Shown here: positions 40,596 to 62,899 of the stretch, piece after piece
Layout: every line of letters starts with the position of its first letter
Numbering within the stretch: position 1 is the first letter of the stretch
Assembly: GCA_026396575.1 (NCBI GenBank)
Contig: JAPLWM010000007.1
Location: 11,546 to 75,545, forward strand
Direction of reading: 5' to 3'
Source: Candidatus Komeilibacteria bacterium
GTDB taxonomy: Bacteria > Patescibacteriota > Patescibacteriia > UBA1558 > UBA10009
Length of the DNA: 64,000 nt
Program-made: the position numbers and the translations under genes
Notes under the pieces: generated by a model
Seen by the model: only the letters and a program-made list of their open reading frames with translations
Told to the model about the DNA's origin: nothing
Databases searched by the model: none

Positions 40596-41834
40596 ATGAA
40601 GTTCGCAAAAAAATATTTTTGCCTCTTGGCGGCGCTAATTTTGGCCGGCGGTTTTTTGTTTAGCCCCGCTCGCGCTGCCAAATACGATTACGATTTGTCT
40701 TTAATCAGCGGCGATTTGGAGTTTTCCAAAGATGTTTTAATTTCCGGCGACACGGTTAGGATTTACGCCCGCATCCGCAATGTCGGCAACAAGGATATGA
40801 CTGGCTCGGTTTCGTTTTTTAGGGGGGCGCAAGCCATCGGCGATTCCCGCACTATTTCGGTTAGGCCCGGCGGCTATGGCGATGTTTTTGTGGATTTTAC
40901 CATTCCCCAAGATTCTTTTAATATTCAGGCAAAAATTCAGGCAACCGAGCCCGCGGACCAGAATCCCGCCAACGATAACGATCAAACCAAATTAATCGTG
41001 CCGGATCAGGATACCGACCACGACGGCATTGTGGACCGTTTGGATCCGGATATTGATAACGACGGCTTAACCAATGACCAGGAAAAAATTTTGGGCACCG
41101 ACCCTTATAAGGCCGATACCGACGGCGACGGAAGCAACGATAAAGTTGACGCTTTCCCGTTGGATCCCAAGGAATGGCTGGATACCGACGCTGACGGCAT
41201 TGGCAATAACGCCGATTTGGATGACGATAACGACGGTTTGTCTGATGTGCAGGAAAAAGCCCTGGGTACCGATCCTTTAAGAAAAGATACCGACGGCGAC
41301 GGCGTGATTGATTCGCTGGACGCTTTTCCTTTGGACCCGGCCCGCTCCAAAGTGGCGCCGGCGCGCGATATTTTTCAGCCCGTGCCAACTTCAAAACCTG
41401 AAACTCCCGTTAATGCCGCTGCCACGGCAAAAAATACCTCGGCGGCTTCAAGTACCGATCAGATCAATGCCGATGCGCAAGCCTTGGCGGCTTTAACCAA
41501 TTCCAATGAGGCGGCTAAAAAAATCGCCGATCAGCCCTTGGAAAAAATCGGCGCCGTGGTGGAAAAAGTTTCCGGCGCCTCGGGAGCGTTTTTCCGGCTG
41601 GATAATTTATTCCTTTGGCTGGCGCTGGGCATTGTTTTGGTGATCGGCGCCATCGTGCTGGTTATTTTAAAAATAAAGAAAGACCGCCAGTTACCGGTGG
41701 ATGCCATCGCCAAGGAAGCGCCGCGCCAGGCCTATGTCCATCAGCCCGCCGCTTTCAAGGAAGCCGGCCAATTATTAAGAAGATCGGCGCCCAATGTGAT
41801 AGATTTAAAGGATTTAATGAATAAAAAGAGATAA
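40596..41834 (+). CDS. Secreted, membrane-anchored surface protein with a CARDB-like N-domain and thrombospondin type-3-like calcium-binding repeats.
   Basis: Signal peptide ending SPARA. Repeated DxDxDGxxDxxD units (DTDHDGIVDRLDPDIDNDGLTNDQEK..DTDGDGSNDKVDAFPLDP, four times or more), an Ala/Ser-rich linker, and a C-terminal TM helix followed by a basic tail. Confidence 0.6.
   Translation: MKFAKKYFCLLAALILAGGFLFSPARAAKYDYDLSLISGDLEFSKDVLISGDTVRIYARIRNVGNKDMTGSVSFFRGAQAIGDSRTISVRPGGYGDVFVDFTIPQDSFNIQAKIQATEPADQNPANDNDQTKLIVPDQDTDHDGIVDRLDPDIDNDGLTNDQEKILGTDPYKADTDGDGSNDKVDAFPLDPKEWLDTDADGIGNNADLDDDNDGLSDVQEKALGTDPLRKDTDGDGVIDSLDAFPLDPARSKVAPARDIFQPVPTSKPETPVNAAATAKNTSAASSTDQINADAQALAALTNSNEAAKKIADQPLEKIGAVVEKVSGASGAFFRLDNLFLWLALGIVLVIGAIVLVILKIKKDRQLPVDAIAKEAPRQAYVHQPAAFKEAGQLLRRSAPNVIDLKDLMNKKR
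40990..41345 (+). repeat. Coding TSP3-like aspartate-rich tandem repeats.
   Basis: Recurrent GAY-rich codon runs encoding DxDxDG loops. They also generate spurious antisense ORFs. Confidence 0.6.
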
Positions 41835-41950
41835 AAAAGCCTTGCCGACCCCCTCTTAATCTCCCCCCTTTATAAGGGGGAGAAATACGAGGTAATAATT
41901 TCCCCTCCTTTATAAGGAGGGGCGCAGGGGTGGTCGGCAAGGCTTTTTTA
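41835..41950. terminator. Nested three-hairpin element, putative bidirectional intrinsic terminator (copy 1 of a repeat family).
   Basis: A6, then gccttgccgacc (41841-41852), which pairs perfectly with ggtcggcaaggc (41929-41940), then T6. The outer stem encloses two hairpins: ctccccc-ctttataa-gggggag and cccctcc-tttataa-ggagggg. Confidence 0.6.
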
Positions 41951-41970
41951 TTGTCAAAAACAACAATCGC

Positions 41971-44148: not shown

Positions 44149-45063
44149 ATGCAAGAAAATTGGGGCATCATCGGGCATGAAGAAATCGTTAATTTTTTGG
44201 AACAGTCGCTCTACAAAAATCGGCTGGCCGGCACTTATTTATTCCACGGTTTGCCGCATTTGGGCAAAACCGCGGTCGCGGAAAAATTTGCCGAGAAATT
44301 ATTGGGTTCCGCCTGGCCGACTACCGAATTGTACAAGCTGGAAATTTTGGAAGATAAAAAGGATATCGGCATCGAACAGGTCAGGGAATGGCGCCGCTCC
44401 TTGGGTTTTAAAGCCTTTACCGATCAGTATAAAGTGGGCATTATTTACGGCGCGGAAAAACTTAATCGCGAATCGGGCAACGCCCTGCTAAAAACCATCG
44501 AAGAACCTTCGCCCAAAACGGTTTTAATTCTGATCGTTTCCGATTCCCAAACTTTATTGCCGACCATTATTTCCCGCTGCCAAACCATTAAGTTTTTGCC
44601 CGTTGCCCAAAACACATTGCATCGGGGCTTGCTGGCCAAAGCGGAGTTGGATAAGAAAAAATTGAATTTAATCGAATCTTTAGCACAAGGACGGCCCGGT
44701 TTGGCCATTCAACTGGCGAAGAATGAAGATTTTTTTAATGAGTATGTCCAGGGCGAGGATTTGGCCGTTAAAGTTTTAGGCAGTCCGCTGGCAACGCGTT
44801 GGCAGCTGTTGGACGGATTGCTGGAACCGCTGGAAGAAGCGCGCGCCAAGGTCCAAGCGGCTTTAAATTTTTTAGCCCATTTGGAAAACGTTTTAAGAAG
44901 CAATTTATTGGCGCATTACTCGTCCGCGCCTGCGTCCGTCCGGCCGGCCTTAAATCCCGGCGGTTTAATCAAGCTTTTTTCCTTAATCAATCTGTCGCGC
45001 CGCTCCTTGGCCGGCAACGTTCAACCGCGTTTAGTTTTAGAAAATTTAATCATCAATATATGA
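44149..45063 (+). CDS. holB: DNA polymerase III clamp-loader subunit delta prime.
   Basis: AAA+ fold with a degenerate Walker A (GLPHLGKT), the sensor/SRC-like block SGNALLKTIEEP and TIISRCQ. At 304 aa the size fits delta prime. Confidence 0.7.
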   Translation: MQENWGIIGHEEIVNFLEQSLYKNRLAGTYLFHGLPHLGKTAVAEKFAEKLLGSAWPTTELYKLEILEDKKDIGIEQVREWRRSLGFKAFTDQYKVGIIYGAEKLNRESGNALLKTIEEPSPKTVLILIVSDSQTLLPTIISRCQTIKFLPVAQNTLHRGLLAKAELDKKKLNLIESLAQGRPGLAIQLAKNEDFFNEYVQGEDLAVKVLGSPLATRWQLLDGLLEPLEEARAKVQAALNFLAHLENVLRSNLLAHYSSAPASVRPALNPGGLIKLFSLINLSRRSLAGNVQPRLVLENLIINI

Positions 45064-46127
45064 AGAACAAATTTTTAATTCCCGCGCTGTTCAGCTTAAT
45101 GGTTTTGGCTTTGTCCGGCTGCATTATCAACCTTAAAACCAGCAATGCTTCAGACGGCGGAATTTTTAAATCGGCCGATTTGGGCGACCATTGGGCCCAG
45201 ATAACTTCCGTTTACCACGTCGGTGATGTAGCTTATTCCTTCGCTTCTTACGACGCTACCGCCTTGGTTATGGATCCTACCGACAATAAAGCCATCTATT
45301 TCGGCACCGCCGACCAGGGCCTGTTTTATACCTATAACGGCGGCACTGGCTGGCAGCAAACTTTAACCGGCTCGGGCCCGATTAATGCCCTGGCTGTTAG
45401 CCCCAAAGAGCGCTGCATTATTTACGCGGCCCTGGGCAATCGGCTTTACAAAACCGTGGATTGCAGCCGCCATTGGAGCTATCAGCTGATTGAAACCAGG
45501 GAAGACCCCAATAATCAAATTAACGCGGTGGCGGTTGACAGTTTTAATACCAATATTGTTTATGCCGGCACTTCCGGCCGGGGCCTGTTTAGGAGCGACG
45601 ACAGCGGCTTTTCCTGGCACGCGGTTAAATTTTTCGACGATCGGATCCTGGATATTTTAATCAATCAAGCCGATTCGCGGATTATTTACGCGGCTACCGC
45701 TTTAAAAGGAATTTTTAAAACCACGGACGCCGGCGTTACCTGGCAGCCGCTGTTTTCCGACCAGCTGATCAAGGATAAAGAAAATCTTTTGGCTTACCGC
45801 GCTTTGATTTTGGATCCTACGGTGCCTGACGGCTTGCTTTATGCTTCCCAATACGGCTTTTTAATGAGAAGCAAGGACGGCGGCGCCAGCTGGCAGGATA
45901 TTAAATTATTAACGCCGCCCAGCGCCACTTTGATTTATTCCCTGGCCATTAACCCCAAAGACGGCAATAATTTGTTTTACGGCACGGCCAAGGCCTTGTA
46001 TCGCAGCGTGGATAACGGCGCTAATTGGATTACCCGGGTTTTGCCTACGGCCCGCGCCGCCAAATTTATCCTCCTGGATCCGCAGGCTGACAATACCTTG
46101 TATTTAGGGGTAAAAATAGTTCAATAA
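45060..46127 (+). CDS. Lipoprotein with BNR/Asp-box-like beta-propeller repeats (Ycf48/sialidase-fold-like).
   Basis: Lipobox LALSGC after the signal peptide. Repeated S/T-x-D-x-G-x-T/S-W motifs (DAGVTWQ, DGGASWQ, DNGANW, DSGFSWH, TGWQQ). Its ATG overlaps the holB stop; the long N-terminal extension in the ORF track is spurious. Confidence 0.6.
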   Translation: MKNKFLIPALFSLMVLALSGCIINLKTSNASDGGIFKSADLGDHWAQITSVYHVGDVAYSFASYDATALVMDPTDNKAIYFGTADQGLFYTYNGGTGWQQTLTGSGPINALAVSPKERCIIYAALGNRLYKTVDCSRHWSYQLIETREDPNNQINAVAVDSFNTNIVYAGTSGRGLFRSDDSGFSWHAVKFFDDRILDILINQADSRIIYAATALKGIFKTTDAGVTWQPLFSDQLIKDKENLLAYRALILDPTVPDGLLYASQYGFLMRSKDGGASWQDIKLLTPPSATLIYSLAINPKDGNNLFYGTAKALYRSVDNGANWITRVLPTARAAKFILLDPQADNTLYLGVKIVQ

Positions 46128-57130: not shown

Positions 57131-57166
57131 AAAAAACAGCCAATTTATCATTGGTTGTTTTTTTAC
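57131..57166 (+). terminator. Intrinsic terminator downstream of the EEP gene.
   Basis: acagccaa-tttatca-ttggttgt (8-bp stem with one G-U pair) followed by T7. Confidence 0.55.
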
Positions 57167-57261
57167 CCATTCAAATCAATAAGCCGAATTTTGTCTCCCT
57201 GCACCACTCACTTCGTTCGGGTGCAGGACAAGCTAAATTTTTAGATAGGTATTAAATACTA

Positions 57262-57304
57262 AAATGAGCCTGCCCTGAACTCGAGCAAAGCGAGTAGTTC
57301 AGGG
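57262..57304 (-). terminator. Hairpin terminator downstream (on the minus strand) of RNase P RNA.
   Basis: ccctgaact / agttcaggg is a 9-bp stem at 57273-57281 and 57296-57304. On the minus strand a U-rich tract (CAUUUUAGUAUUU) follows. Confidence 0.45.
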
Positions 57305-57658
57305 GGATGATCATCTATCTAGATCCGCAAATTGCTCTGCGGATTCATGCCTTCAACCCGCCCTGTACCGTATGGTTCAGGGCCTACTTGAAGTTGCACC
57401 GGATAGAGTTTACCTCTTTTCCCTTGTCGCCAAGGGAACGGATCCGCTTATTGGCGTATCTTTTCACCTGCAATTCACGACCGGTATACCCATGCCATGA
57501 ATAAGAATACTTTCTGTTGCACTTGTCCTGTTGCCTAAATTACTTTAGGCAACGGTTGGCGTTACCAATTATCCTCCGTAAAGGTACGGAAACCTTGGTG
57601 TTCGGACTTTCCTCTCCGCCGAAGCCCTATAAGGGCGAAGGTGGAGCGATCATCTAGA
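57305..57658 (-). ncRNA. rnpB: RNase P RNA, bacterial type A.
   Basis: The minus-strand transcript contains, in the correct order, GGCGGAGAGGAAAGTCCGAACACCAAGG (P4 5' strand), GGTAACGCC, AGTGCAACAGAAAG, GGTGAAAAG...AAGCGG and GGTAAACTC, and a 3' end CAGAGCAATTTGCGGATCTAGATAGATGATCATCC whose GATCATC pairs with the 5' GATGATC to form P1. Length is about 355 nt. Confidence 0.8.
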
Positions 57659-57724
57659 TTTGAATGAGCAAAAATAGGATAACATAAAAGAAGCATAAAG
57701 TCAAGTTTTGTTTTTCTAACAAAT

Positions 57725-57754
57725 TTGCATATATTGGCCTTATTTTGGTATGAT
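57725..57754 (+). promoter_or_regulatory. Candidate promoter: TTGCAT, 18 nt spacer, TATGAT.
   Basis: TTGCAT at 57725-57730 and TATGAT at 57749-57754, 6 nt upstream of the ATG at 57761. Confidence 0.45.
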
Positions 57755-57760
57755 ATTAAC

Positions 57761-59149
57761 ATGAAAAAGCTCGAGTTAACTTTTGCCGCTTTATTGGTGC
57801 CTTTGGATTATCTGGCCTTGCTGGCTGCCGGCACCGCGGCTTATTTTTTGCGTTTCCAATCCTTTTTAACCGATCTTAGGCCGGTGGTTTTTACCATGCC
57901 GTATGCCGATTTTTTCAAGGTGATTGCCGCGGTCGCGGCCGTTTGGCTCTTGGTTTTCGCCTTAAACGGCTTGTATTCCATCAAGCGCCAGGGCTTTTGG
58001 AATTATTTTTCCAAAATTTTCGTGGCTTCCAGCGCCGCCACCTTGGTCATCGTGGTCGCTTTTTTCTTCAACTTCCAATTGTTTTCTTCCAGATTGATTA
58101 TTTTAACCGGCTGGGCTTTGGCCATAATTTTTGTAACTTTGGAAAGATTGATCATCCACTACATTAAAAAGATTTTTTATAAGAAGGGCTTAGGCGTTAG
58201 GCGGGTGGTAATTATCGGCAGCGGCAAAAGCGCGGCCGATATTATGGCCGAATTTAAAGCCAAACCGTCTTTCGGTTTTTTAGTGGTTAAAGTTTTGCCG
58301 AATTTTACGGAAATATCGGAAGAGGAATTAACCGAAGAACTTTCCAGTCGGGGGATTGACGACGTGATTTTAGCCGATCCGGAAATCACCGTGGCCGACA
58401 AGAACCGTTTGGTTAATTTTTGCCTGGCCAACCATTTAAATTATAAATATGCCGCTTCGTTGCTGGAAACCAAATTGATCAATTTTTCCTTAAGCACCAT
58501 TGCCGGCCTGCCTTTTATTGAAGTTAAGCAAACCCGTTTGGACGGCTGGGGCAGGATTATCAAGCGGGTTTTTGATTTGTTTTTGTCTTTATTGTTTATC
58601 ATTGTTTTATCGCCGATTTTAATTATCGTCGGTTTGATTGTGGTTTTAACTTCTGCCGGTCCGATGGTGGTAAAATTAGTCCGCATAGGCAACCAAGGCC
58701 AGATTTTCAATTTATATAAATTCCGTTCCATGGTAAAAAACGCCCATTTGTTAAAACCGTCTTTAAGCCAGTATAACCAGCGCGCCGACGGTCCCTTGTT
58801 TAAAATGGCCAATGATCCGCGTTTAACGCATTTTGGCAAATTTATCAGGCGCTGGAGCTTGGACGAATTACCCCAGTTGTTTAATGTTTTATCGGGCAGG
58901 ATGAGCTTGGTAGGCCCTAGGCCCCATGAGCCGGAAGAAGTAGCCCGTTTTCAAACGCGAGAAAAAAAATTATTGGCCATTAAGCCGGGCATTACCGGCA
59001 TGGCCCAAGTTTCCGGCCGCAGCGATTTATTGTGGCAAGACGAAGTAAAGTTGGATACTTATTACGTGGAAAATTGGAGTTTGGATTTGGATATCCAAAT
59101 CCTGCTTAAAACGCCCAAAGCGGTCATTGGCCGCCGACAAACCGTATGA
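57761..59149 (+). CDS. Polyprenyl-phosphate hexose-1-phosphate transferase (bacterial sugar transferase, WbaP/WcaJ/EpsB-like initiating enzyme).
   Basis: Four or more N-terminal TM helices, a central CoA-binding-like domain, and the C-terminal Bac_transf block KRVFDLFLSLL...LVRIGNQG..F..YKFRSM...LDELPQLFNVLSGRMSLVGPRP. Start taken at ATG 57761. Confidence 0.8.
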   Translation: MKKLELTFAALLVPLDYLALLAAGTAAYFLRFQSFLTDLRPVVFTMPYADFFKVIAAVAAVWLLVFALNGLYSIKRQGFWNYFSKIFVASSAATLVIVVAFFFNFQLFSSRLIILTGWALAIIFVTLERLIIHYIKKIFYKKGLGVRRVVIIGSGKSAADIMAEFKAKPSFGFLVVKVLPNFTEISEEELTEELSSRGIDDVILADPEITVADKNRLVNFCLANHLNYKYAASLLETKLINFSLSTIAGLPFIEVKQTRLDGWGRIIKRVFDLFLSLLFIIVLSPILIIVGLIVVLTSAGPMVVKLVRIGNQGQIFNLYKFRSMVKNAHLLKPSLSQYNQRADGPLFKMANDPRLTHFGKFIRRWSLDELPQLFNVLSGRMSLVGPRPHEPEEVARFQTREKKLLAIKPGITGMAQVSGRSDLLWQDEVKLDTYYVENWSLDLDIQILLKTPKAVIGRRQTV

Positions 59150-60261
59150 AAATAGCTTTAACTCACGACCATCTTTTCCAAGTCGGCGGGGCCGAAAAAG
59201 TGCTGTTGGAATTGCATCGGATTTTTCCGGACAGCCCGGTTTACACCCTGATCCATAATCCGGAAAACGCCGAGCTGTTTAAGGGCTTGGACATTAGAAC
59301 TTCCATGCTGGAAAAATTGCCCGGCGGTAAAAAGCATTTTAAATGGTACTTGAGCTTAATGCCCATTGCCTGGGAGCAGTTTGATTTTTCCGACTATGAT
59401 ATCGTTATTTCTTCCTCGTCCGCTTTTTCCAAGGGCATTTTAACCCCGCCCAATACTTTGCATTTATGCTATTGCCATTCGCCGGTCAGGTATTTATGGT
59501 CCGATGCCCATCGCTACGTGGAAGAGTTGAATCAGCCCAAAATCATTAAAAAAATTCTGCCGCTGATTTTAAATCGCCTAAGAACTTGGGATTATTCGGC
59601 CGCCCAGCGGGTGGATAAGTTTATCGCCAATTCGGAATTCGTGGCCAAGCGGATAAAAAAATATTACCAGCGCTCTTCTGCTGTAATTTATCCGCCGGTT
59701 GATACCAAACAGTTTAAAATTAGTCCGAAGCTGGATAATTATTACGTTTTGCTTACTCGTTTGCGTCCGTATAAGCGGGTGGATATCGCCATTAAGGCCT
59801 TTAATCAATTACACTTGCCTTTAAAAATTATCGGCGGCGGGGAAGAAATTGCTCGTTTGAAAAAAATCGCTAAAAGCAATATTGAGTTCTTGGGTGAAGT
59901 AAACGATATTAGGCGTAACGAAATTTTAGCCCGGGCTCTGGCTTTTATTAATCCCCAGGAAGAAGATTTCGGCATTGCGCCAATTGAGGCCATGGCCAGC
60001 GGCCGGCCGGTAATCGCTTATAAATCCGGCGGGGCTTTGGAAACGGTCATCGATGGCTTTAACGGCAGATTTTTTGAAGAGCAAAGCTGGGAGGCCTTGG
60101 CCGATGCCGTGATTAAGTTCCAGGCCGAGAAGGATAATTATGATCCGTATAAAATAAAGGACTATGCCGAAAAATTTTCCACCGAGCGCTTTGACCGGGA
60201 AATTAAGGATTTTGTGGCCAAAAGCTGGCAGGAGTTTTCCGGTAAAATTTTACATTTTTAA
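59146..60261 (+). CDS. Family 4 glycosyltransferase.
   Basis: EDFGIAPIEAMASGRPVIAYKSGGALE. Confidence 0.7.
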   Translation: MKIALTHDHLFQVGGAEKVLLELHRIFPDSPVYTLIHNPENAELFKGLDIRTSMLEKLPGGKKHFKWYLSLMPIAWEQFDFSDYDIVISSSSAFSKGILTPPNTLHLCYCHSPVRYLWSDAHRYVEELNQPKIIKKILPLILNRLRTWDYSAAQRVDKFIANSEFVAKRIKKYYQRSSAVIYPPVDTKQFKISPKLDNYYVLLTRLRPYKRVDIAIKAFNQLHLPLKIIGGGEEIARLKKIAKSNIEFLGEVNDIRRNEILARALAFINPQEEDFGIAPIEAMASGRPVIAYKSGGALETVIDGFNGRFFEEQSWEALADAVIKFQAEKDNYDPYKIKDYAEKFSTERFDREIKDFVAKSWQEFSGKILHF

Positions 60262-60392
60262 GTGAATCGGCTATACTAACTTAGCTTAATCATTAACAAA
60301 ATTACGCATATGTTAAAGATAACATTAGGGCCAGGTTGCGGCGGTTGCTAACCGTCCGCTAACCAGCATTTATTATTAAAATCAACTCTTTT

Positions 60393-60512
60393 ATGCACTG
60401 CGCCAAATGCCAAATGCCTCTGGAAGACAATAATGCCTGCTCCTGCAACGAAATTTTATGCCAATATTGCTGCGAATGCGACGAGGGTTGCAGCTGCGGT
60501 TGCAAGGGCTAA
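60393..60512 (+). CDS. Unannotated 39-codon cysteine-rich peptide (metallothionein-like).
   Basis: ATG at 60393 to TAA at 60510-60512 encodes MHCAKCQMPLEDNNACSCNEILCQYCCECDEGCSCGCKG. It has 11 Cys in 39 aa, arranged as CxxC, CSC, CC, CEC, CSC and CGC. It falls below the 60-aa cutoff of the ORF track. Confidence 0.45.
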   Translation: MHCAKCQMPLEDNNACSCNEILCQYCCECDEGCSCGCKG

Positions 60513-60529
60513 TAATAAATGATGTTGAA

Positions 60530-60648
60530 GAAAAGGTCTTGCAAACTTTTACCCCCACCCAACCTCCCCCTAATCTAGGGGGAGGAGAATATTTCCCCCT
60601 CCTAGATTAGGAGGGGTTAGGGGAGGTAAGTTGGCAAGGCTTTTTCAT
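60530..60648. terminator. Nested three-hairpin element, copy 2 of the family seen at 41835-41950.
   Basis: A4, then ggtcttgcaaactt, which pairs imperfectly with aagttggcaaggc, then T5. The outer stem encloses cctccccc-taatcta-gggggagg and cccctcc-tagatta-ggagggg. Confidence 0.55.
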
Positions 60649-60687
60649 TTTTGCCAATTGCGGCGATTTTCTTTATAATAGGCGTAT

Positions 60688-61821
60688 ATGAAAATCGGCG
60701 TTGATCTTAGGGCGGTATCCGGCAAGCAATTAACCGGGGTGGGTACTTACACCCTGGCCGTGTTGGAAGAGCTGTTAAGGCAGGATAAGCAAAACCATTA
60801 TAAGCTGTTTTGTAATTCTTTAGCGGATTTGCCTCAAGCTGTTTTGGATCGGTTTAAAAATAGCAACGCGGAAATTTATTCCTTTCATTATCCCAGTAAG
60901 CTGTTTAACGGCGCTTTAACTTTTTTTAGACGGCCTTGCCTGGATAAGCTAATCAAGGGTGCGGATCTGTTCTGGTTTCCCAATTTAAGTTTTTGGTCGG
61001 TTAGCCAGAGCTGCCGAACAATTGTTACGGTTCATGATTTGTCCTTTAAAAAAATCCCTTGGGCTTACAGCGCCAAGATGCGCCTCTGGCATCAGCTAGT
61101 TAAGCCGCGGCAAAAATTGGCGAGCGCTGCCAAAATTATCGCGGTTTCTAATAATACCAAAAGGGATTTAATGGATTTGTACAATTTGCCGAAAGAAAAA
61201 ATAGAAGCGGTTTATCCCGGTTTGCCTGAGGCCGAACAATCTTCGGCGAATTTTCAGGCGATTAAAAATAAATACAATTTGCCGGAAAAATTCATTTTGT
61301 ATCTTGGCACATTGGAACCGCGCAAAAATATCGAGGGCATAATTGCCGCTTACGAATTATTGAATCGGCCTGACGTTGATTTAGTTATTGCAGGCGGTAA
61401 GGGTTGGCTGTACCGGCAAATTTATCGGTTGGCGGCAAAATCGCCTTTAAAAAAACAAATTCATTTTATAAATTACATTCAGCCTGAAGATAGATTTAGC
61501 TTGTATCGCTTGGCTGCCGCCTTGGTTTGGCCGTCATTTTACGAGGGCTTCGGCTTGCCGCCCTTGGAAGCCATGGCCAGCGGAGTGCCAGTAATTACTT
61601 CCGCCAACAGTTCTTTGCCGGAAGTGGTGGGTCAAGCCGCTTTATTGGTCGATCCTTACAATATTGCCGAAATCAAAGAAGCAATGAATCAAGCAATTAA
61701 TAACCCCTTATTAAGGGCGGCTTTAATAAAAAAAGGACAAGAACAGGTTAAAAAATACAGCTGGCAGCAAACCGCTAAACAAATGTTAAAAATATTTGAA
61801 CAATATGAAAATCGGCATTGA
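60688..61821 (+). CDS. Family 4 glycosyltransferase.
   Basis: FYEGFGLPPLEAMASGVPVITSAN. Confidence 0.75.
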   Translation: MKIGVDLRAVSGKQLTGVGTYTLAVLEELLRQDKQNHYKLFCNSLADLPQAVLDRFKNSNAEIYSFHYPSKLFNGALTFFRRPCLDKLIKGADLFWFPNLSFWSVSQSCRTIVTVHDLSFKKIPWAYSAKMRLWHQLVKPRQKLASAAKIIAVSNNTKRDLMDLYNLPKEKIEAVYPGLPEAEQSSANFQAIKNKYNLPEKFILYLGTLEPRKNIEGIIAAYELLNRPDVDLVIAGGKGWLYRQIYRLAAKSPLKKQIHFINYIQPEDRFSLYRLAAALVWPSFYEGFGLPPLEAMASGVPVITSANSSLPEVVGQAALLVDPYNIAEIKEAMNQAINNPLLRAALIKKGQEQVKKYSWQQTAKQMLKIFEQYENRH

Positions 61822-62899
61822 CGCGCGCCTTTACGGCACCAAATACCAGGGCTTGGGGCGCTATGTTAAAAAACTGGTGGACGGCTTGGCCGAGAGCGAT
61901 CAAGAAAACAGCTACACGGTTTTTTTAACGCCGGATAATTTTGACGATTTTAAAACCGCCAATCTCAAGTTTAAAAAAGTCCTCTTGCCGGCCCGCTGGT
62001 ACAGCTTTAAAGAACAATGGTTGGCGCCTAAAATAATCAATAAAGAACGCTTGGATTTAATGCATTTTCCGCATTTTAACGCGCCTTATTTTTATGCGGG
62101 CCGCTTTATTATTACTTTGCACGATCTTATTATCAATCATTTTCCCGATTCCCGGGCTACTACCTTGCCCAAGTGGCTGTATCAGTTTAAGCTTTGGGCT
62201 TACCGAATATCGCTTAAAAGAACCGTTAATAAAGCGGAAAAAATCATCGTGCCTTCACAGTTTGTTAAAGATGATGTGGTTAAGCATTATCCGGCAGCGG
62301 CGGCCAAAGTTAAGGTTATTTATGAGGGTTATTTTTTGGATGAAGACCAACAAGCGGTAAATATCGATCGTTTTAAAATAACCAAGCCGTTTTTGCTTTA
62401 TGTGGGCAGCGCCTATCCGCATAAAAATTTAAGGAAACTGATCGCTGTTTTTAAACAGTTGAACCGCCAAAAAAATTACCAATTGGTTTTGGTCGGCCGG
62501 CATGATTATTTTTATCGGCGTTTGCAACAAGAAGCAGGAGATGATCCCGATATTATTTTTACCGGTTATCTGGCTGATAGCGAACTGGCTGCTTTATATG
62601 GGCAGGCCCGCCTTTATGTTTTTCCTTCCAGCTATGAGGGCTTTGGCTTGCCGCCTCTGGAGGCCCAGGCTCATGGTTTGCCCGTAGCTTCGGCTAATTC
62701 CAGCTGTTTGCCGGAAGTATTAGGCCAGGCGGCAATTTATTTTGATCCTAAAAATGAAACCGAAATGCTGGCAGCGATTAAAAAAGTTTTAAATGATGAA
62801 AAATTGCGCTCCCAACTTAGCTTGTTGGGCCAAAAAAATATCGCCAGGTTTAGTTGGGAAACCATGGTTAAGCAAACTCAAGCCCTCTATCTATCGTAA
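61805..62899 (+). CDS. Family 4 glycosyltransferase (paralog of the upstream gene).
   Basis: SYEGFGLPPLEAQAHGLPVASAN, and the N-terminus MKIGIDARLYG parallels MKIGVDLRAVSG of the previous gene. Start is the ATG at 61805. Confidence 0.75.
   Translation: MKIGIDARLYGTKYQGLGRYVKKLVDGLAESDQENSYTVFLTPDNFDDFKTANLKFKKVLLPARWYSFKEQWLAPKIINKERLDLMHFPHFNAPYFYAGRFIITLHDLIINHFPDSRATTLPKWLYQFKLWAYRISLKRTVNKAEKIIVPSQFVKDDVVKHYPAAAAKVKVIYEGYFLDEDQQAVNIDRFKITKPFLLYVGSAYPHKNLRKLIAVFKQLNRQKNYQLVLVGRHDYFYRRLQQEAGDDPDIIFTGYLADSELAALYGQARLYVFPSSYEGFGLPPLEAQAHGLPVASANSSCLPEVLGQAAIYFDPKNETEMLAAIKKVLNDEKLRSQLSLLGQKNIARFSWETMVKQTQALYLS

Follow-up and report, generated by a model that had tools for sequence, protein, structure and literature searches.

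A 39-codon open reading frame (ORF) encoding a peptide with 11 cysteines was analysed in a 64,000-nucleotide stretch of DNA (the window) from a Candidatus Komeilibacteria bacterium, and is almost certainly a real gene. This microprotein gene is under purifying selection and appears, from its sequence, to represent a new family of Cys-rich, putatively metal-binding microproteins, which in the searches made was found, among the matches listed, in Patescibacteria only. Judged by its cysteine motifs, the product is very likely a metal-thiolate protein, with zinc as the probable metal. The best overall explanation, which we regard as probable at a lower level of confidence, is a cytoplasmic Patescibacteria microprotein with a core of ~35 residues folded around several metal ions.

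The gene and its transcription unit

The features of the locus are collected in Table 1. The ORF was translated as MHCAKCQMPLEDNNACSCNEILCQYCCECDEGCSCGCKG; re-translation reproduced exactly the 39-aa, 11-Cys, ATG-to-TAA frame given in a preliminary description of the window, and the stop codon is doubled. Upstream, the frame is closed by a stop 13 codons away, and the codons in between include no alternative ATG, GTG or TTG start. Cysteine makes up 11 of the 39 residues (28%), arranged in CxxC, CxC, CxxCCxC and CxCxC motifs, and the peptide contains one Tyr and one His. From the base composition, the probability of at least 11 TGY codons among 39 was 2.9e-8, indicating that the Cys richness did not arise by chance. 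In all six frames of the window this was the sole stop-free stretch of 39 codons with more than 8 Cys, and Cys accounted for 0.74% of the codons in the other 61 ORFs. Neither a signal peptide nor a hydrophobic segment was detected in the microprotein, indicating a cytoplasmic location.

Table 1. Features at the microprotein locus and its surroundings, in window coordinates
Feature	Position	Strand	Remarks
Second copy of the nested hairpin	41826..41956		Between two unrelated genes
Bac_transf sugar transferase gene	57725..59149		
GT4 glycosyltransferase gene	59146..60261		Upstream neighbour
Promoter-like sequence	60249..60277	+	TTTACA-17-TATACT; overlaps end of upstream GT4 gene; consensus match only
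5′ spacer, 131 nt	60262..60392	+	Upstream GT4 gene ends at 60261
Weak hairpin in spacer	~60334..60364		Followed by a T-rich stretch; fold z = -2.4
AT-rich motif in spacer	60370..60382		TTATTATTAAAAT
Microprotein ORF, 39 codons	60393..60512	+	ATG start; TAA stop included
Second stop codon	60513..60515		TAA
Nested palindromic hairpin, 117 nt, near-perfect	60530..60646	.	-76.3 kcal/mol, z = -6.2
Promoter-like sequence of next GT4 gene	60651..60679	+	TTGCCA-17-TATAAT; ATG at 60688, 8 nt past the -10 hexamer
GT4 glycosyltransferase gene	60688..61821		Downstream neighbour
GT4 glycosyltransferase gene	61796..62899		Downstream neighbour

The preliminary description had called the gene unannotated and of a kind that annotation pipelines miss, and both statements were borne out by public data: the identical locus is present on 10 public contigs, on none of which gene callers had called the microprotein gene (0/10), and an exact-product look-up gave no record of its product. 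The peptide, padded to 40 aa, gave zero candidates in a word-indexed protein search.

The spacer upstream of the gene, earlier put at 130 bp, measured 131 nt. Its AT-rich motif is also found upstream of the ortholog on contig L019 (see below), and transcription of the microprotein gene may start from the promoter-like sequence that overlaps the preceding GT4 gene, a candidate by its consensus match. No Shine-Dalgarno (SD) sequence precedes the ATG; since an SD-like motif was found for 4 of 61 window ORFs, its lack is no argument against translation of the microprotein. Starts in the window are preceded by AT-rich runs (e.g. TTTT-ATG), and TATAAT lies 7–12 nt before several ATGs (60674–60679 before 60688; also upstream of 56358 and 44149), which suggests SD-independent or leaderless initiation of the window genes. 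The GT4 gene starting at 60688 is possibly leaderless. Its promoter-like site, whose TTCTTTTATAAT motif is conserved in L019, would mark the end of the microprotein's unit. Elsewhere in the window, ORFs 44149–45063 and 44799–46127 overlap by ~265 nt on the same strand; the listed TTG start of the latter is probably too far upstream.

The nested hairpin begins 17 nt past the microprotein stop, with an A-run before it and a U-run after it. Both of its ~120-nt copies in the window are intergenic and consist of an outer stem, AAAAAGCCTTGCC...GGCAAGGCTTTTT, and two inner C-rich/G-rich mini-hairpins, with a mean column identity of 74%. From its sequence the element looks like a bidirectional terminator, and the nested palindromic shape suggests either such a terminator or a MITE/REP-like element. 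Relatives of the locus carry ordinary terminators in its place; the nested hairpin is a repeated element of the source genome and not part of the gene family. The nested-hairpin element reported earlier behind the ORF is present in the window, as a lineage-specific feature. Rfam gave only meaningless microRNA-like matches for the locus, all to the palindrome. The 10 public contigs (L001–L010, short-read) all stop inside the palindrome, eight of them at 60576 and two at 60550/60551, indicating that it is a systematic assembly breakpoint by which the genes just beyond it are split across contigs.

In most family copies a GC-rich stem followed by a T-run, i.e. a predicted intrinsic terminator, lies directly 3′ of the stop; a few copies have a canonical SD, and in several a TATAAT/TATACT hexamer lies 7–10 nt before the ATG. 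These terminators and start signals indicate that the microprotein gene is as a rule the last of its transcription unit, and often the only one, in agreement with the small transcription unit of its own proposed earlier. In three Magasanikbacteria (L061, L100 and L110) the microprotein gene, with CTGCTATACT 9 nt before its ATG, lies 39–43 nt upstream of a gene for a ~975-aa UvrD/PDDEXK helicase-nuclease, with no clear terminator between the two, an arrangement that suggests a leaderless co-transcript.

Distribution, conservation and gene neighbourhood of the family

An exhaustive phmmer search with the peptide over 1.84e9 representatives gave three small relatives of 47–60 aa with 59–67% identity; the top match (P0001, 1138 aa) was rejected as a repeat artefact. 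A profile of the three relatives retrieved 8 proteins, among them P0009, and a wider profile retrieved 46 proteins of 42–84 aa. Combined, the protein searches gave ~52 family members of 40–84 aa, all of them "hypothetical protein" where named and none with a precomputed Pfam domain. None of the protein-search matches, all ≤84 aa, was fused to a larger protein. The named sources were Paceibacterota/Pacebacteria, Nealson-, Buchanan- and Daviesbacteria and "Patescibacteria group", all belonging to the CPR.

The degenerate DNA pattern C-x-C-x4-C-x2-CC-x-C-x3-C-x-C-G-C was scanned over GTDB with one genome per species. At least 120 matches were obtained, ~70% of those listed being TGC/GC simple repeats, which were discarded; at least 34 true genomic copies remained among the matches listed. 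These came from Paceibacterota, Saccharibacteria, Falkow-, Magasanik-, Buchanan-, Berkel-, Komeili- and Nealsonbacteria and unclassified Patescibacteria, the exceptions among the copies listed being two "bacterium" records and two odd labels. The latter, "uncultured Gammaproteobacteria" (L033, CAYVUR010000004.1) and "Pacearchaeota archaeon" (L092, DAKN01000019.1), are probably mis-binned or mislabelled, since both copies are syntenic with or nearly identical to Buchananbacteria/Paceibacterota (CPR) copies. A scan of IMG/VR with the same pattern gave 112 matches and no true member, indicating that the family is not phage-borne. The true distribution is under-counted, because gene callers skip the family, as on the 10 identical contigs.

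Cys conservation in the at least 34 genomic copies is partly given by construction, since the search pattern required Cys. In a 53-sequence protein alignment, whose members had not been selected by the DNA pattern, seven Cys were invariant, and the remaining four Cys, P9 and G36 were at least 90% conserved. The family consensus was C-x(1,2)-C-x-[MI]-P-[LIF]-x(5,6)-C-x-C-x4-C-x2-C-C-x-C-x3-C-x-C-G-C, with M-P-L, N19, L22 and an aromatic residue at 24/25 (aromatic/His before the CC pair) as further conserved non-Cys positions. One divergent member (P0053) has Asp for the first Cys of the CC pair and an extra Cys beside the N-terminal pair, which would fit a ligand swap.

Subfamilies differed in their extensions only. 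The window type has none or a short Lys/Glu tail, and Lys-rich tails occur in other members. A polyacidic tail of ~30 residues (SNMI..DEDE...) follows the Cys core in one subfamily with Buchananbacteria or unclassified Patescibacteria labels. In a 60-aa form, MFTDxQQEFD is added at the N-terminus and the C-terminus reads ...AEF; the conserved C-terminal ...KAEF of a further subfamily is, in sequence, reminiscent of short C-terminal docking tips. The polyacidic and ...KAEF tails were noted among L062, L066, L119 and L033 and among P0013, P0017, P0023 and others.

The 40-aa protein P0009 (MECQKCQIPLDNDTKCSCNENICYHCCECDADCGCGCGNK), found on groundwater contigs, is a syntenic ortholog encoded between the corresponding two GT4 genes, the order PBP2-GreA-MreB-GT4-...-Bac_transf-(NYN)-GT4-peptide-GT4-GT4-DUF4012 being common to these contigs and the window. 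A third genome (L053) has the order NYN-GT4-peptide-GT4-GT4-DUF4012, as in the window and L019. Between the window and L019, pS of the peptide gene was 0.84 (saturated) and pN 0.28, as compared with pS of 0.65–0.73 and pN of 0.14–0.29 for the flanking genes, and 4 of the 11 Cys codons differed (TGC/TGT) with Cys kept. In 12 phylogenetically separate family pairs, pS was 0.83 and pN 0.19 (ratio 0.23), and TGC/TGT switches with Cys kept were seen in 56 of 134 Cys columns. The saturated synonymous sites, low pN and switching Cys codons indicate that the frame is kept and that purifying selection acts on the protein. The comparison of synonymous with non-synonymous change proposed in the preliminary description thus came out for the gene, and the frame, whose loss in syntenic relatives had been named there as evidence to the contrary, is kept in the syntenic ortholog. 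Contig L018 is near-identical to and otherwise collinear with L019, from which it differs by a 323-aa minus-strand gene (L018 3495–4466 (-)) with no Pfam match, placed between the microprotein's terminator and the next GT4 gene; the difference suggests a recent insertion or deletion.

All genes within 5 kb of the microprotein gene were clustered for ~39 loci. No universal neighbour was found across them, and three lineage-specific arrangements were distinguished. In one, the gene lies in a GT4 array (the window, L019/L089, L053 and partly L057). In another, genes for GluRS and a coiled-coil M23 (PcsB-like) peptidase lie upstream and those for an XerC-like recombinase and an FtsQ-like protein downstream; in the third, UvrD/PDDEXK helicase-nuclease, DciA, MreB and MreC are encoded downstream. 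Other loci read Ddl-FtsQ-peptide and YceG-x-peptide-x-P-type ATPase, the P-type ATPase gene being two genes away at this one locus, and in one lineage an ABC exporter is encoded directly downstream. The earlier placement of the gene inside a glycosyltransferase array holds for the window locus and not for the family; the glycosyltransferase setting is incidental to the 11-Cys family. In the window, no ArsR/SmtB, MerR or Zur-type neighbour was found, and across the ~39 loci no metal sensor, metal-efflux or metal-homeostasis gene and no Fe-S assembly gene recurred. The preliminary description had noted that no maturation enzymes were adjacent, and this extends to the relatives: no radical-SAM or other maturase was adjacent in the window or recurrent across the ~39 loci.

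The envelope-gene cluster of the window also contains a bacterial class A RNase P RNA (57164–57666 (-), 153 bits), flanked by an Exo_endo_phos gene and the Bac_transf gene; its length of 503 nt is large for a model of 367 positions.

Predicted fold and metal binding

High Cys content with CxC, CC and CxxC motifs is typical of metallothioneins and Zn-Cys cluster domains. As the cytoplasm is reducing, metal ligation is the best explanation for 11 conserved thiols in 35 residues. The window peptide fits the size and Cys pattern of metallothioneins (<10 kDa, CxC/CC/CxxC). As to their scarcity of aromatic residues and low conservation outside Cys, it has one Tyr and one His, and the family has a conserved aromatic/His position, with P9 and G36 at least 90% conserved. 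Linked genes for metal-responsive regulation or homeostasis, a further mark of metallothioneins, were found neither in the window nor recurrently at the ~39 loci.

Searches of Pfam, NCBIfam and PHROGs gave zero matches for the window peptide. Dipteran Metallothio_5 (PF02067) matched 7 of the 53 aligned members below its gathering score (best E = 0.0064), a similarity that is compositional, and PF02069 (BmtA/SmtA) matched neither the peptide nor any of the 53 members at E ≤ 1. The comparison with Pfam metallothionein families suggested earlier thus failed to place the peptide in any of them, and of the earlier term "metallothionein-like" the part that stood was the Cys motifs, which are of the metal-thiolate-cluster kind; membership of a known metallothionein family and recurrent metal genes were not found. 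A sequence-profile search of the PDB returned NuoI only, at E = 7.6, far from significance, and the canonical ferredoxin motif CxxCxxCxxxCP is absent from the peptide and the family alignment.

AF2 modelled the window peptide, without metals, at pLDDT 85.9. For a 76-aa relative the core reached ~90 and the acidic tail 53–69, with the same isolated-bridge pattern as in the window peptide. The models are suggestive of a defined fold of the 11-Cys core, as far as a 39-residue metal-dependent peptide allows. Foldseek gave no significant match among solved or viral structures (E ≥ 0.67). Its weak neighbours were all Zn(Cys)4 knuckle domains (ComF zinc ribbon, RING, RBR, FYVE, DksA-C4 and AN1), among them a phage ComF zinc ribbon (25 aa, rmsd 0.4, prob 0.72), which was below significance. 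Together with the conserved non-Cys residues, the confident AF2 fold points to a domain of defined structure, unlike the floppy chain of a classical metallothionein.

In the explanation that we favour, the 11 conserved Cys thiolates would hold several metal ions, around which the ~35-residue core would be folded. Zn(II) would be the likeliest metal, with perhaps 3–4 ions per chain. The N-terminal C-x(1,2)-C ... C-x-C pairs may form a zinc-ribbon-like knuckle site, and the C-terminal C-x2-CC-x-C-x3-C-x-C-x-C block may form a polynuclear thiolate cluster with bridging sulfurs. This could be realised as a Zn(Cys)4 ribbon-like site (C3, C6, C16 and C18) plus a bridged cluster on the other seven Cys, or as one M4Cys11-type cluster like that of the alpha-domain of vertebrate metallothionein. 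The role may be metal buffering or storage in very small genomes, a weaker proposal than metal binding itself; by analogy, a metallothionein-like buffering role is tentative and stands at somewhat less than an even chance.

The vertebrate alpha-domain, M4Cys11, has 11 Cys in ~30 residues with CxC, CC and CxxC motifs. Its Cys number and motifs equal those of the microprotein, in which a four-metal cluster is therefore stoichiometrically possible. The two are not homologous, however: outside their cysteines, vertebrate metallothioneins show almost no conservation, and they are unfolded unless metal is bound. The 11-Cys family, in contrast, conserves M-P-L, N, L, an aromatic and G, and its AF2 model is confident. 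The dipteran metallothionein family 5 (PF02067) is similar in size and Cys density and is the only Pfam family that any member touches, but all of its matches were sub-threshold and the window peptide gave none. Among zinc-ribbon and cross-brace Zn(Cys)4 microdomains (ComF ribbon, RING/RBR, DksA C4 and archaeal zinc-finger micro-proteins), the putative likeness is that the model of the N-terminal half resembles a two-knuckle ribbon; in contrast, a simple ribbon has nothing to match the seven additional conserved Cys of the C-terminal half, and no match was significant (E ≥ 0.67).

Closest in kind are the bacterial metallothioneins of the BmtA/SmtA type (PF02069 Metallothio_Pro; SmtA, PflQ2MT and TvMT), which are small (~55 aa), cytoplasmic, folded and encoded by standalone genes. 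SmtA ligands are Cys and His, and smtA is paired with the SmtB repressor; the 11-Cys family differs from SmtA in having 11 Cys and no conserved His, and no SmtB-like sensor is linked to its gene at the ~39 loci. Sequence similarity to BmtA/SmtA was undetectable by HMM for the 53 members, and the taxa differ, BmtA/SmtA occurring in cyanobacteria and pseudomonads and the 11-Cys family in Patescibacteria. Characterised bacterial metallothioneins are rigid and well folded, with a zinc-finger fold and 3–4 bound Zn (PMC10612145). This pairing of a zinc-finger-like fold with a 3–4 Zn thiolate cluster is what the 11-Cys family would share with them, and its conserved non-Cys positions would be more in keeping with the folded bacterial metallothioneins (PMC10612145) than with classical ones. 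The microprotein would be akin to the folded bacterial metallothioneins in kind and not by homology.

Alternative readings and significance

The residues conserved outside the Cys positions also bear on another reading, in which the gene product is a structural zinc-cluster microprotein for partner binding, metal only holding its fold, and possibly acts with the cell-wall/division machinery; we consider this possible, if rather unlikely. M-P-L, N19, L22 and the aromatic at 24/25 are conserved across very divergent CPR classes, and the tails are subfamily-specific (polyacidic of ~30 aa, Lys-rich or ...AEF), the tail being modelled as disordered. In this reading the variable acidic or basic tails and the conserved residues, taken to lie on the surface, would make the contacts with the partner. 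Such conserved residues and lineage-specific tails fit partner binding at least as well as metal buffering. Depending on lineage, the gene lies within a few kb of those for MreB/MreC/PBP2, FtsQ and Ddl, a PcsB-like M23 peptidase or YceG/MltG, and metal-homeostasis genes are not linked to it. Against this, no single neighbour is conserved, and the vicinity of cell-wall/division genes, which in small genomes may reflect inherited synteny and not function, is no more than a lead; the window version is tailless, and a fusion to a larger protein was not seen among matches, all ≤84 aa.

Readings that give the cysteines another use than a Zn-type cluster fared less well. CPR bacteria are mostly anaerobes, and 11 Cys would be enough for two [4Fe-4S] clusters, so that a small iron-sulfur or redox protein of anaerobic fermenters was considered, its cysteines either ligating one or two Fe-S clusters or serving to buffer thiol redox state; the only PDB sequence match, NuoI with its ferredoxin-like cluster motifs, points the same way at a non-significant E of 7.6. 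This is improbable, since CxxCxxCxxxCP is missing, no ferredoxin or Fe-S Pfam family matched and no Fe-S assembly gene is adjacent, and the CxC and CC spacings, which typify Zn/Cd/Cu thiolate clusters, are not those usually seen in Fe-S ligation. Even less can be said for a Cys-rich RiPP precursor (ranthipeptide/SCIFF-like, sactipeptide or lanthipeptide) or a secreted disulfide-rich peptide, an alternative that we think very improbable. The peptide is indeed short and Cys-rich, and the ABC exporter directly downstream in one lineage would suit such a product, as would the likeness to SCIFF (six cysteines in forty-five residues) ranthipeptide precursors, which are short, Cys-rich and often missed by gene callers. 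To our knowledge, however, SCIFF is clostridial and always found beside a radical-SAM maturase, whereas the microprotein has no maturase, no NCBIfam match and another Cys pattern; radical-SAM, LanM-type or protease maturases were neither adjacent in the window nor recurrent at the ~39 loci, and a signal peptide is lacking. Nor is there a leader/core layout: conservation is full-length, with 1–10 residues before the first Cys, and RiPP cores are usually hypervariable, the opposite of a core conserved across a superphylum.

Finally, the ORF might encode no functional protein: it could have arisen by chance, or its many Cys codons could make it a leader peptide through which the supply of Cys-tRNA governs the hairpin terminator, as the very stable hairpin 17 nt after the ORF and the missing SD could suggest. 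This is scarcely credible and is effectively refuted by conservation: amino acids, non-Cys residues included, are conserved while synonymous sites are saturated, and the peptide recurs in unrelated contexts, where a terminator usually comes directly after its gene, with unrelated genes beyond. Moreover, an SD is absent from almost all genes of the source genome, the hairpin is a repeated element with a second copy in the window (Table 1), and the downstream gene has a promoter-like site of its own.

Patescibacteria comprise a large share of bacterial diversity and have tiny genomes with many conserved genes of undetermined function. We found no paper linking metallothioneins or Cys-rich small proteins to Patescibacteria, CPR or Saccharibacteria. 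In the 11-Cys family, 11 conserved Cys in 39–60 residues span Saccharibacteria to Paceibacterota as well as Falkow-, Magasanik- and Buchananbacteria, in a peptide that is cheap to synthesise. If the microprotein is a metal buffer, it would show zinc or copper handling in minimal cells; if it is a structural zinc-cluster adaptor, its fold would be new and might offer a way into the cell-envelope biology of CPR. It could also, though we think this unlikely, be the first example of a core microprotein specific to Patescibacteria, whose new fold would rest on an 11-Cys polynuclear thiolate cluster (3–4 Zn or Cu, or unusual Fe-S, in ~35 residues) and whose role would lie in housekeeping, for instance in connection with the cell-wall/division genes near which it recurs, and not in metal detoxification. 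In that case it would join the small number of CPR proteins that define the lineage and lend themselves to biochemical study.
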